Below, piece after piece: positions 7,481 to 12,880 of a stretch of 20,837 nucleotides of DNA. Source of the DNA: a virus (taxonomy: Duplodnaviria > Heunggongvirae > Uroviricota > Caudoviricetes). The first letter of the stretch is position 1; each line of letters opens with the position of its first letter. The stretch lies in the IMG/VR virus record IMGVR_UViG_2537562191_000053; one strand, given 5' to 3'. The notes beneath the pieces are model-generated. The model was not told where the DNA came from. It saw only the letters and a program-made list of their open reading frames with translations, and did not search any database. The position numbers and the translations under genes were made by a program.

Positions 7481-8114
7481 GTTCACAGATAAAACACTCT
7501 CCAGGAAACCCGGGGCGGTTCAATCAGGGCGATTAACATCGCCTTTTGCTGCTTCATAGCCTGCTTCTCCTTGCCTTTCGGCACGTAAGAGGCTAACCTA
7601 CATGTGCAAAGCATGAAATTGGCCTCAGATTAATGTTAAGCGTCTTGCCGGACGCGTAATGTTAACTGGGGCTTTTCTCTATCTGCCTTTTGGTGTTCAT
7701 GCCTGAGGCAGATAGCCTCAAGCACCCGCAGCAATTCTAACTATCCAATAGATCAATGCCAACTTCTTTTCCTGCAACATCTCTCATCAGAAGTGACCCA
7801 AATTCATCCAATCAGCACAAAAGAAACATTTAAAGCGTGAATGCTACCGAACGTTCATTTCAATTACATCGTTTTGATTTTTAACAGTTTTCACCTCAAC
7901 AAATCAAATGGCATTAGCATTCATCATGGAAGAAAGACTGATAAAAATGATCATTTTCAATGACTTATGATCACACCGGGTATTGCCAAGTCATTCCTTT
8001 TACGCCAGGATACCCACAAGTGAGTAGTCGAGGAGAGTTTGCCAATTTTTGCGATATAAATTTCAATGTCCGAAGAACCATTAATTGTTAATTGATTCTG
8101 TATAAGGTATTAAC

Positions 8115-9212
8115 ATGACAATTTCATATATTCCTATTCTGAAAGCGAAACGTTCTGAGTTATCAGCTTTATCGCAGCTATCCATTGAAAAGAAATCAAA
8201 AATTTTGCCATTACTCGAAATTGAACCAGTGCCAATTGACCCTGATTCAGGTATTGCCTTAAAGAGTTATAACGAGACTCTTATAGAGTTCGGAAAGAAA
8301 GTCTCAAAATCTTGCTCAGATATGCAAGGTGTTTATATTGATGGATTATTAATTGAAGAGCATTTTATTTCTCCTGAAGATCATTACCCTATAATAAATG
8401 CGGTTAATCAAGTTAGAGATATGGAGATAAGAGTTATTCCTGTCAGTTCACCAACTCGCCCATCTAACTATAAAAGAGCGATTGATGAATTAATGCAGAA
8501 TGAAATATGCTTGAGATTAACCACGTTAGATCTGGTTAACCCACAATTAATAACGCATTACATTAATCATCTGGGAATTCCTTTATCAAATATTGATATA
8601 ATTATTGACTTAAGAGATGAGTTAACCGAGGATAAAATTAATTCCGGCGAACTATATACTTTGGCAATGGGATTGATAAACAATCTGGCGCACCTCAATG
8701 AATACAGAAAAGTGATTCTTTCTGGGGGTTCATTTCCTACAGATCTCAGTGATATTTCTGTTGGTCTATATTCTCAACCTCGAATCGAGTGGATTTTATG
8801 GCAGAGTTTAATGAATAGAAAAGAACTTGCCAGAAATGTGATTTATAGTGATTATGGAGTACAGCACCCCGACTTTAATAGGCTTTCGACGCGATTCCCT
8901 AGCGTATCTGCCAGCGTCAGATACTCTGGAGATAATGACTTTTGGGTATTTCGAGGAAGAGTAGCTAATCGCTTTGGTTATGAACAATATGGTAAACATA
9001 GTGAGGATATTCTTGCTCATCGAGAATATTCAGGGCCTACATTCTGTGCGGGAGATAGAGACATAGAATATTATGCAAACGAGTATCAAGCCTACAAAGC
9101 CAATCCCTCTGGTAACTATAAATTTGGTAGCCCAGAGGTATGGCGTAGGATTGGGCAAAACCATCACATAACTAAGGTTGTTGAGCAACTCGCCACTCTT
9201 TACGGGCTTTAA
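8115..9212 (+). CDS. Hypothetical 365-aa protein in AT-rich island; candidate sensor/partner of a two-gene defence-like module (tentatively Beta-protein/sce7725-like, unverified)
   Basis: ATG with AAGGT RBS; codon-dense and strongly AT-rich; N-terminus MTISYIPILKAKRSELSALSQL. No Walker, HNH or methylase motifs seen. Family resemblance is from memory only. Confidence 0.75.
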   Translation: MTISYIPILKAKRSELSALSQLSIEKKSKILPLLEIEPVPIDPDSGIALKSYNETLIEFGKKVSKSCSDMQGVYIDGLLIEEHFISPEDHYPIINAVNQVRDMEIRVIPVSSPTRPSNYKRAIDELMQNEICLRLTTLDLVNPQLITHYINHLGIPLSNIDIIIDLRDELTEDKINSGELYTLAMGLINNLAHLNEYRKVILSGGSFPTDLSDISVGLYSQPRIEWILWQSLMNRKELARNVIYSDYGVQHPDFNRLSTRFPSVSASVRYSGDNDFWVFRGRVANRFGYEQYGKHSEDILAHREYSGPTFCAGDRDIEYYANEYQAYKANPSGNYKFGSPEVWRRIGQNHHITKVVEQLATLYGL

Positions 9213-9750
9213 GTTTAACTCGAACAGCTTCACGAAGCTCGCCAACATCCATACTATTGGCGAGTTTTGACCATAAGACGCGTTTAGGTTTATTTTTCAA
9301 ATTCTGTAGCTCCCCTACATCACTTAATAGGGAAAGCAATTCATCTTTCCAAAGAAGCATTGTTAAGGAAAGTTTGTCCACTTGTGGATTCAACTTGCTA
9401 GTTCGAATTGTTTTTAAATGGATACCTTGCCGTGCACCTTGCGTAACTTGCTTTATCCCCCACCATGATGGAACTATGCTTAAAGCATCATAAAGATGGC
9501 AATCAGAGACAACCAAAGTTACTTTATCCATCACTGATGAGTAATGTTGCACCTGCGCTGGTAATCTGAGCAAGTTATCACTCTTGCTCTTCAACTCATA
9601 ACCATGTATAAGCCCATTGATCACTGCTATATCAGCTCTGCTAGCCCCTAGATTCATCGTAAACTCATCAATGATTAGGGTGTCAGGATCTTTATGATGA
9701 TCTCTCAGAATCTTGGCATGCACAGCCTTTCTTACATCAATGTCTCTCAT
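9172..9750 (-). CDS. PD-(D/E)xK nuclease-fold protein (192 aa); candidate effector of the module (tentatively sce7726-like, unverified)
   Basis: N-terminal region MRDIDVRK...IIDEF...RADIAVINGLIHGYELKS carries the E...D...ExK restriction-endonuclease-like signature. Its 3' end overlaps the convergent 365-aa gene by 41 nt. Weak RBS. Confidence 0.75.
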   Translation of the reverse strand: MRDIDVRKAVHAKILRDHHKDPDTLIIDEFTMNLGASRADIAVINGLIHGYELKSKSDNLLRLPAQVQHYSSVMDKVTLVVSDCHLYDALSIVPSWWGIKQVTQGARQGIHLKTIRTSKLNPQVDKLSLTMLLWKDELLSLLSDVGELQNLKNKPKRVLWSKLANSMDVGELREAVRVKLKARKEWRVAQQP

Positions 9751-9782
9751 ACCATAGTTGCGCTTTCATCGACTCTCTCAAG

Positions 9783-9801
9783 CCATGATTCTATATCATG
9801 G
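9783..9801. promoter_or_regulatory. Palindrome CCATGAT-tctat-ATCATGG, 33-51 nt upstream of the nuclease gene; candidate operator overlapping a TAGAAT -10 element
   Basis: Perfect 7-bp arms read directly; the minus strand reads TGGCAT-N17-TAGAAT around it. Confidence 0.35.
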
Positions 9802-10055
9802 TTCGCATGAATGCCATTTGATATGACCAGTGGTTAAACATTGCACAGAAAAGTGGATGTGTATTTTAACAAAAGCAATGACGGCTAACCATGTTGGTAT
9901 GTCGATAAAATGTTTCAACGTAAGCATTATCTGTTCCGCCCTTTCAGACGGCCTCCTGATGTTCTGAGGGTGCAGAATCCCTCCGGTTAAGGGTTTAATA
10001 AAAATCGTTTCTGATTTAAATCTTCAGTATTTAGTTGTTAGTCGGTTTATAGCCT

Positions 10056-10367
10056 TTATGCTTCGGCCTTATTTCTCAGCCATACACAAACCGGGCCATC
10101 TTCGGTGTCATGTATTGAACCAATAAACCATCCATTGCCCTCTGGTCGTTCCGGTTCCCATGCAGAAATATCAGCATCACACGCATCAAGGTCAGCACAT
10201 CCTTCATCTCTGAAGCAGAGGACGTATTGAAGATTATTTTCCTCCATCCAGGCGTTAAACTCTTCCGTTGAAATATATTCCCGACCGTCACAGAATTTTT
10301 CATATTCAGGATGCGTCCAGCAGCCATATTCATCACGTACTACTGGTATTTCTTTAATTTCATTCAT
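10056..10367 (-). CDS. Hypothetical phage protein (103 aa, acidic, Cys-containing)
   Basis: Packed head-to-tail with upstream genes (8-nt overlap); normal GC. Confidence 0.55.
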   Translation of the reverse strand: MNEIKEIPVVRDEYGCWTHPEYEKFCDGREYISTEEFNAWMEENNLQYVLCFRDEGCADLDACDADISAWEPERPEGNGWFIGSIHDTEDGPVCVWLRNKAEA

Positions 10368-10614
10368 TTCTGTTCTCCCACGTTTTCAGACTTTCACCAC
10401 AGAACGGACAAAATGAAACCCGAACTGGTAATTTAGAAAATTCACCGGAACGCAACATCACAAAATCAGGACCGCGAGTTAAACTCTCATTCCAGATTTT
10501 GTATATCAGCAGACCTTTTCGCATCGTGTATTCAGCATCATGCTCAAGGGACTTTGCCAGTGCTGCACATGGTTCTATCTTGTTGCCATTAACCTGGCAT
10601 TTTGATTCACTCAC
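10360..10614 (-). CDS. Hypothetical phage protein (84 aa) with C-terminal CPFCG motif
   Basis: 4-nt overlap with the upstream gene; possible zinc-binding Cys pairs. Confidence 0.55.
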   Translation of the reverse strand: MSESKCQVNGNKIEPCAALAKSLEHDAEYTMRKGLLIYKIWNESLTRGPDFVMLRSGEFSKLPVRVSFCPFCGESLKTWENRNE

Positions 10615-12783: not shown

Positions 12784-12880
12784 ACCTTCCTCGGTTTAGT
12801 GTTTTTTTGCGAGTTTAGTGTTTAATAAACCATTAAGTCAAGTATTTGCTTGTTTAGTGATTACTAAAGATAATTACCAC
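12784..12880. promoter_or_regulatory. Divergent promoter-operator region (OR-like) with three GTTTAGTG(T/A)TT repeats
   Basis: Plus-strand TTGCTT-N17-GATAAT ends 6 nt before the cI-like ATG with no SD (leaderless). Minus-strand TTGACT-N18-TAAACT faces the Cro-like gene. Repeats at about 12797, 12813 and 12852; near-palindrome GTTTAATAAAC at about 12821. Confidence 0.55.

Follow-up and report, generated by a model that had tools for sequence, protein, structure and literature searches.

A palindrome at the candidate promoter of the cII-like gene in a two-gene, gop-less prophage cassette of Escherichia coli

The perfect palindrome that precedes a predicted nuclease gene in a lambdoid prophage of Escherichia coli is probably the core of a sigma-70 promoter belonging to a two-gene cassette homologous to the beta and cII genes of phage P4, and its dyad symmetry, which is specific to one lineage, is most likely incidental. 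Judging from sequence comparison, the left arm would cover the TG of an extended -10 element, the -10 hexamer would be formed by the loop together with the initial bases of the right arm, and the remainder of the right arm would fall in the discriminator and start-site region. With such a promoter, expression of the cII-like gene in the lysogen would not depend on the early operon of the phage, which is repressed, and this is what one would expect of a moron-like defence cassette carried as prophage cargo. The symmetry, in turn, would be an accident of one leader rather than a conserved regulatory site.

As a regulatory finding, this matters little and adds one more case of a short palindrome overlapping a promoter. 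Its context is of more use: the window, i.e., the whole stretch of 20,837 nucleotides analysed here (IMG/VR record IMGVR_UViG_2537562191_000053), carries a widespread, gop-less two-gene relative of the P4 gop-beta-cII locus that appears to have its own conserved promoter of the extended -10 type. The module itself, gop-less, convergent and with overlapping 3′ ends, is more interesting biology than the palindrome. The defined cassette (approximately positions 7747-9901) and its promoter region are now available for cloning the module, and the outer arm positions of the palindrome are the bases whose mutation would separate promoter function from any operator function.

A beta-sce7726 cassette in a variable prophage slot

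At 99.97% identity, the window corresponds to a lambdoid (Rac/Qin-like) prophage located beside potC in E. coli O111:H- strain 11128, the sole difference being an extra inverted IS3-family copy at 17051-18363 of the window. The spacer that holds the palindrome (9751-10055) is bounded on one side by the sce7726 family (P4 cII-like) gene and on the other side by a 103-aa gene (10056-10367), the last one of the phage replication-side operon. Homology to the prophage backbone, which is found in thousands of E. coli genomes, stops at 7739-7746, just past hok/sok, and starts again at 9902 or 9936. The DNA between these limits encodes beta and the sce7726 gene plus only unannotated ORFs of 40-43 aa, so that the earlier remark that no small regulator gene lies nearby was accurate. 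Positions 9751-9935 are found only together with the cassette (93 of 5426 genomes), and the palindrome is therefore part of the cassette's own leader, not of the phage backbone. Together, the beta and cII-like genes make up a cassette of 2.2 kb, housed in a variable slot of an E. coli O111/O26 lambdoid prophage, and the same slot carries different cargo in other prophages.

The slot spans positions 7740-9935, between the replication-side genes and hok/sok, varies across E. coli lambdoid prophages (loci L179 and L180) and looks like a cargo or defence hotspot: in strain M8, it is occupied by a NACHT-domain protein and elsewhere by a DUF7167 gene and others. In the window, the DUF7167 gene (ATG at 9927) is truncated by the cassette after ~8 codons, which leaves a chimeric 43-aa ORF whose TGA stop codon sits inside a palindrome arm. 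This ORF has no RefSeq annotation and is probably not a gene; as a candidate small regulator it was rejected, being a DUF7167 start fused to cassette DNA, with the ATG changed to ATT in strain C311. The backbone part of the spacer (9902-10055) has no Rfam match and no terminator-like site, and its RNA fold is no better than those of shuffled sequences. A segment of ~64 nt within it (9936-9999), just upstream of the DUF7167 start, shows ~92% conservation across thousands of prophages of E. coli and in a few phage records, one of them labelled Actinobacillus phage, with nothing annotated beneath the match; the segment has neither an Rfam match nor an unusual RNA fold.

Elsewhere in the window, two IS3-family copies (IS1203-like) lie in inverted orientation at 17051-18363 and 6209-7522, each with an ALIL frameshift pseudoknot. 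The former copy interrupts the prophage exonuclease gene, leaving ORFs 15641-17053 and 18385-19419, and the junctions show a 3-bp overlap. Rfam matches outside the cassette (1387-1998, 7552-7727 and 14946-14997) comprise the sRNAs STnc100 and AgvB, sok, DicF and tRNAs; STnc100, AgvB and two tRNAs lie near the left end of the window, and the sok antisense RNA adjoins hok.

Both cassette genes encode members of recognizable families (Table 1). The 365-aa protein, annotated in RefSeq as "beta family protein", matches PF14350 (Beta_protein; E = 7e-52), its only Pfam hit, as well as the PD-Lambda-2_C (E = 1.4e-40) and beta models of PADLOC, and P4 Beta used as a tblastn query matches its gene with E = 4e-7. 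The AF2 model of this protein (pLDDT 91) retrieves TIM-barrel proteins in Foldseek searches, and Beta is predicted to be TIM-barrel-like, without a recognizable DNA-binding domain, which speaks against the suggestion, made in the first-pass annotation, that it might bind the palindrome. The 192-aa protein, annotated in RefSeq as "sce7726 family protein", matches NCBIfam model NF033832 (sce7726_fam; E = 1.7e-56), the PADLOC model 'cll' for the P4 cII-like component (E = 2.4e-28) and P4 cII itself (tblastn, E = 6e-15, 28% identity), and has no Pfam domain hit of any kind. Its residues E29, D40, E52 and K54 are invariant in 47 homologues and correspond to the E...D...ExK pattern of PD-(D/E)xK nucleases. 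The AF2 model of the 192-aa protein (pLDDT 94), which includes a C-terminal four-helix domain, matches MmcB-like "DNA repair" proteins, UL24, Mrr and other PD-(D/E)xK proteins in BFVD, with E-values from 5e-14 to about 1e-2, and Foldseek searches of the PDB returned weak hits (E above 0.1), mostly to PD-(D/E)xK nucleases; sequence searches against solved structures gave no match for this protein or for Beta. Thus, the 192-aa protein is predicted to have a PD-(D/E)xK nuclease fold and, given the invariant residues together with the fold matches, calling it a nuclease, as was done before, appears reasonable.

Table 1. Coordinates of the cassette, its genes and the elements of the cII-like leader
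Feature	Positions	Strand	Basis or remarks
Cassette-specific DNA (beta, cII-like gene, their leaders)	7747..9901 (boundaries approximate)	.	limits of backbone homology
beta family protein gene, 365 aa, P4 beta homologue	8115..9212	+	Pfam, PADLOC, AF2
3′-end overlap of the convergent beta and cII-like genes, 41 nt	9172..9212	.	
sce7726 family / phage P4 cII-like gene, 192 aa	9172..9750	-	NCBIfam, PADLOC, tblastn
Perfect palindrome CCATGAT-tctat-ATCATGG	9783..9801	.	arms 9783-9789 and 9795-9801
Candidate -10 block TGATATAGAAT	9788..9798	-	promoter scan, 4-way alignment
Candidate -35 block ATCAAATGGCAT	9811..9822	-	ATGGCA 9817-9812; TGGCAT of the first-pass annotation 9816-9811
Chimeric 43-aa ORF (DUF7167 start running into cassette DNA), probably not a gene	9796..9927	-	ATG is ATT in strain C311
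Prophage backbone: 3′ flank of the upstream 103-aa gene, DUF7167 leader and first codons	9902..10055	-	

The association of the two genes is not peculiar to this prophage: beta is adjacent to and convergent with the gene for the sce7726 relative in 171 of the 181 homologous loci that encode one, across many phyla. The 3′ overlap of 41 nt, which is conserved in Enterobacterales, is the same in five further loci (L011, L012, L014, L302 and L303) and is found in cassettes from Enterobacter, Dickeya, Kosakonia and metagenomes. No terminator was detected between the convergent beta and cII-like genes, and convergent transcription or antisense control may be the real regulatory feature of the two-gene module. 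A gop homologue is absent: P4 gop as a tblastn query gives nothing in 7747-8114, its best match in the window (E = 0.04) lies outside this segment, and cassettes of the P2 type leave no room for a third gene.

The three-gene gop-beta-cII locus of P4 protects E. coli against phages lambda and P1 and behaves as a defence system of the toxin-antitoxin type (PMC9122126). The P4 locus, recognized as 'Rst_gop_beta_cll' by DefenseFinder and PADLOC, and the cassette described here share convergent homologues of beta (PF14350) and cII (sce7726 family), a position within a mobile element, in a variable slot for cargo or defence genes, and an element of the TGCTATAAT type, which in P4 lies upstream of cII. 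Unlike the P4 locus, however, the cassette lacks a gop homologue, its cII-like protein is 192 aa long, compared with 264 aa in P4, and only 28% identical, and the 3′ ends of its two genes overlap by 41 nt, whereas in P4 a gap with a terminator separates them. Furthermore, P4 cII lies directly downstream of int, and its -10 element has no palindrome beyond a 4-bp dyad. The beta-like component C of the PD-lambda-2 system is described as related to a P4 antitoxin and is needed for defence (PMC9519451). The match to the PADLOC model of this component links the 365-aa protein to PD-lambda-2 as well, but the partners of the beta-like protein in that system are HigB-like and Xre-peptidase proteins, which are absent here, and no sce7726 protein is involved.

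The palindrome and the candidate promoter

The palindrome reads CCATGATATAGAATCATGG in the orientation of the cII-like gene and consists of 19 bases, namely, two 7-nt arms that are 100% complementary and a 5-nt spacer. Its reported place, 33-51 nt upstream of the ATG at 9750 that starts the minus-strand 192-aa ORF, proved exact. Its geometry is operator-like, with arm centres 12 bp apart and a span from -18 to about +1, and it overlaps TAGAAT at 9793-9788, such that the dyad symmetry falls on the candidate core promoter. Statistically, the palindrome is unremarkable and no rarer than chance. Over the whole window of 20.8 kb, a count of perfect inverted repeats (arms ≥7 nt, loops of 0-12 nt) gave 47 hits, which represent 31 distinct repeats, or ~1 per 670 nt, compared with 18 ± 5 in Markov-1 random sequence; with a loop of exactly 5 nt, there are 2 repeats in the window against 1.4 expected.

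The promoter scan yielded a single sigma-70-like match on the minus strand of the spacer upstream of the sce7726 gene, ATGGCA-N18-TAGAAT (9817..9788), with 9 of 12 positions matched; across positions 9000-10500, promoter-like hits number 4, compared with 3.5 ± 2.2 in shuffled sequences. For the same site, TGGCAT-N17-TAGAAT had been proposed initially. The -10 hexamer of that proposal and its overlap with the palindrome hold, but its -35 register is the poorer one, with only 2 of 6 matches to TTGACA, and moving the register by one base, to ATGGCA, raises these to 4 of 6. The -10 block itself can be read in two ways, as TAGAAT (9793-9788) or as TG-n-TATAGA (TG at 9798-9797 and hexamer at 9795-9790), neither of which is perfect: in TATAGA, the final T is missing, and in TAGAAT, the TG lies two bases farther upstream than it should. 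The resemblance to extended -10 (TGn) sigma-70 promoters consists in the conserved TGnTATA(A/G)(A/G)AT, located at an appropriate distance from the start codon, and in an imperfect -35 block 17-18 nt upstream; the difference is that the TGn-associated hexamer in the window is TATAGA, whereas the better hexamer, TAGAAT, is offset by two bases from the TG. Transcription from this promoter would start at about 9779-9784.

In two other strains, an IS1 is found just upstream of the cII-like promoter region, at ~9898-9902 (SA53/Rac-SA53 and CAU16175; L018). In SA53 and CAU16175, the insertion lies ~150 nt upstream of the gene and leaves 147 nt of the leader intact, so that the cII-like gene is cut off from upstream phage transcription while gene and leader are still intact.

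Conservation of the promoter blocks and of the dyad

We collected ~180 homologous loci for comparison of the leaders. The exact palindrome is present only in near-identical E. coli copies (30 loci), and the dyad is missing from all homologous leaders for which the encoded protein is at most 81% identical; leaders with 82-98% identical proteins were not found in the collections searched. The leaders from the window, strain C311, Enterobacter roggenkampii (L011) and a metagenomic contig (L302), with proteins 78-100% identical, were aligned four ways. In all four, the blocks ATCAnATGG (-35) and TGnTATAnnAT (-10) are invariant and equally spaced, and the sequence between and around them diverges. 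The closest diverged leaders, those of E. roggenkampii (protein 81% identical) and of the metagenomic contig (78%), contain no dyad: the left arm, CCATGAT in the window, is GTGTGCT in the former and CTCTGTGCT in the latter, and opposite the right arm, ATCATGG, the two have ATCATTGG or ACGATTGG, displaced by an insertion of 4-5 nt. The -10 element reads TGaTATAGAAT in the window and TGcTATAAAAT in E. roggenkampii, and without gaps the two leaders share 20 identical bases over the 30-nt promoter block (hand count, alignment A3).

The -10 motif extends well beyond these close relatives. TGnTATA is present upstream of the gene in every lineage with at least 64% protein identity, and of 45 independent upstream clusters, 9 contain TGCTATA, compared with 0.42 in shuffled sequences (maximum 3 in 300 shuffles). 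Moreover, TGCTATA(A/T) is found again where the genomic surroundings are unrelated, among them P2-like prophages and P4; in the latter, TTGCTATAAT lies ~40 nt upstream of the cII start. Taken together, these comparisons are good, though indirect, evidence of a genuine, ancestral promoter element of the extended -10 type at this site and point to promoter activity of the cII-like leader. Thus, of the earlier idea of an operator-controlled promoter of the nuclease gene, we retain the promoter, on account of the blocks conserved in four leaders and the recurrent TGCTATA, but not the operator.

It is quite unlikely that neither element functions, i.e., that both the promoter match and the palindrome arose by chance in an AT-rich leader and that the gene is expressed by read-through only. 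Such a reading would accommodate the weak promoter match (9/12), the lack of enrichment of such hits over shuffles, the chance-level frequency of palindromes and the failure to find an upstream terminator, but it leaves unexplained why otherwise diverged leaders keep two promoter blocks at a fixed distance from each other and why TGCTATA(A/T) recurs in unrelated contexts. It also fits poorly with the IS1 insertions of SA53 and CAU16175, which cut off upstream transcription with gene and leader intact, and with the likely need of a defence cargo gene for expression in the lysogen.

The symmetry behaves differently from the promoter blocks. We considered a family-wide dyad at the -10 with a lineage-specific sequence, which would point to autoregulation, and rejected it for want of enrichment across homologues: among 53 representative homologues, the best arm of upstream inverted repeats averages 4.0 nt, compared with 3.7 nt in shuffles, and dyads centred on the -10 score 3.9, compared with 3.6 elsewhere, and are thus no better. 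Within the E. coli lineage, the 185-nt leader has 16 variable sites, and 1 variable site falls in the 14 arm positions against 1.2 expected, which gives no hint of constraint on the arms, at the low power afforded by 16 variable sites. In strain CAU16175, 9784 G>A breaks one arm. In strain C311, both hexamers are unchanged, and the four closest substitutions lie in the spacer just upstream of the left arm, a pattern that fits promoter constraint and operator constraint equally.

Not everything sits comfortably with a promoter whose dyad is incidental. To derive the dyad from a leader of the Enterobacter or metagenomic type would take about four left-arm substitutions and a deletion of 4-5 nt, and this multi-step origin could reflect selection for symmetry. 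In addition, the geometry is that of a site for a dimeric repressor, the variation within the lineage (16 sites) is too small to detect constraint, and the promoter match is 9/12, with neither -10 register perfect. Weighing these points against the absence of the dyad from all diverged leaders, we infer that the symmetry is without function, and we favour the promoter with an incidental dyad.

Cassettes of the P2 type (L012-L015, L046-L051 and L100-L103) have a distinct, well conserved cII-like leader, from about -90 to -1, of the form AAAAAAnnCGTGCTATAAC...(G/C)(A/G)TTTAAAGT...AAAAACGACC, in which a second TATA-like element often follows 9-10 nt after the first.

Binding factors, regulons and RNA-level roles

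Operators of repressors and antitoxins can overlap the -10 element, as in the autoregulation of type II toxin-antitoxin systems or in LexA- or TrpR-type sites. The palindrome resembles such operators in that a 19-bp perfect dyad lies over the -10 and the start site, with a potentially toxic gene downstream; it differs from them in that no cognate DNA-binding protein is recognizably encoded with it, sites are not repeated and the symmetry is not conserved in orthologous promoters. On the operator model, a dimeric protein, whether encoded by the host, by the prophage or by the cassette (either protein alone or both in complex), would bind the palindrome, occlude the -10 and keep the expression of the nuclease-fold gene low. 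The classical position of the dyad, the several changes relative to related leaders that created it, the C-terminal four-helix domain of the sce7726 protein and the expectation of tight control, given that the related P4 gop-beta-cII locus is toxin-antitoxin-like (PMC9122126), all speak for this model, which we nevertheless regard as unlikely. The symmetry is not conserved in any homologous leader and dyads are not enriched at the family level, the pattern of substitution is neutral, with one arm broken in the natural strain CAU16175, and the frequency of such palindromes is unremarkable. As to the binder, no cognate DNA-binding regulator is recognizable, by Pfam or in the structure models, among the two cassette proteins: Beta is modelled as TIM-barrel-like, the sce7726 protein has no Pfam hit, and neither of the two matches a solved structure by sequence, although the helical C-terminal domain of the sce7726 protein may still have a part in binding.

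Searches for further copies of the site give the same picture. The window contains 2 matches at up to 3 mismatches, compared with 1.4 expected, i.e., no second copy beyond chance. Scanning IMG/VR for CCATGAT-N5-ATCATGG, we found at least 120 places, of which this cassette accounts for 17 loci; the other recurrent groups (loops GTTCA and GTTTA) encode in frame, according to our reading of the flanks, a conserved peptide (AMMFNHGD, for example), and this cassette is the only recurrent non-coding context that emerged among these places. A regulon sharing the site was rejected on these two grounds. The operator role put forward in the first-pass annotation is thus not borne out, the dyad being unconserved in homologues, without a second site and without regulon-like recurrence. 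Control by the prophage repressor was likewise rejected: the immunity region between the divergent cro-like and cI-like genes (12790-12875) contains three TTTAGTG(T/A)TT repeats, presumed to be the prophage operators, which are unrelated to CCATGAT. One of these repeats lies within the palindrome TTTAGTGATTACTAAA. The spacing of the palindrome under study does not seem to fit the consensus sites of Fur, FNR or ArgR.

A narrower variant of the operator model holds that the dyad is a recent, lineage-specific operator through which the cassette regulates itself, bound by the C-terminal domain of the sce7726 protein or by a complex of Beta and the nuclease. We consider this very doubtful; if true, it would amount to toxin-antitoxin-like autoregulation that sets the ratio of nuclease to Beta in a convergent two-gene defence module.

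The palindrome can also be considered at the RNA level. As a hairpin, it has a folding energy of -8.0 kcal/mol when read on the sense strand, compared with -10.6 kcal/mol for the plus strand, and the 91-nt leader folds slightly better than its shuffles (z = -2.0). The stem is A+T-rich, and no T-run follows the palindrome on either strand; lacking a U-run behind it, the hairpin is therefore not an intrinsic terminator. No terminator-like sites were found in 9000-10500, and Rfam gave no match even at E ≤ 1, so that an intrinsic terminator or a known RNA element was rejected. Given that no terminator was found upstream of the cassette or between the convergent genes, read-through is plausible. 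A transcript initiated at the predicted promoter would begin within the right arm and include only half of the palindrome; the hairpin could matter only for read-through transcripts. Such transcripts, coming in the sense direction from the phage early-right operon or, on the plus strand, from beta as antisense through the cII-like gene, might form a hairpin of 7-9 bp that serves as a processing or stability element. Although the folding energies, the fold of the leader and the plausibility of read-through are in line with this proposal, it is highly improbable, considering that the hairpin has no U-run, does not sequester the start codon region, is only half transcribed from the predicted promoter, is not conserved in homologues and has no Rfam match. 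The promoter with an incidental dyad remains our preferred reading.

Two minor features of the leaders deserve mention. An inverted repeat with 15 of 16 positions matched (ATCAAATGGCATT) connects the beta leader (7900-7915) with the cII-like leader (9810-9825), where the repeat, CAAATCAAATGGCATT, contains the -35 block. It was rejected as the terminal inverted repeats of the cassette, being located 80-155 nt inside the boundaries and one of many similar pairs within the same 2.4 kb; it was not seen in the Enterobacter beta leader, read by eye, and is probably due to chance. The second feature is a short upstream ORF of 10 codons, MKAQLWYERH (9737-9769, minus strand), which is preceded by GAGAGAG, starts 19 nt before the cII-like ATG and overlaps it out of frame; this ORF may reflect translational coupling, or nothing. 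The arrangement differs in the Enterobacter leader, where an upstream ATG is in frame.
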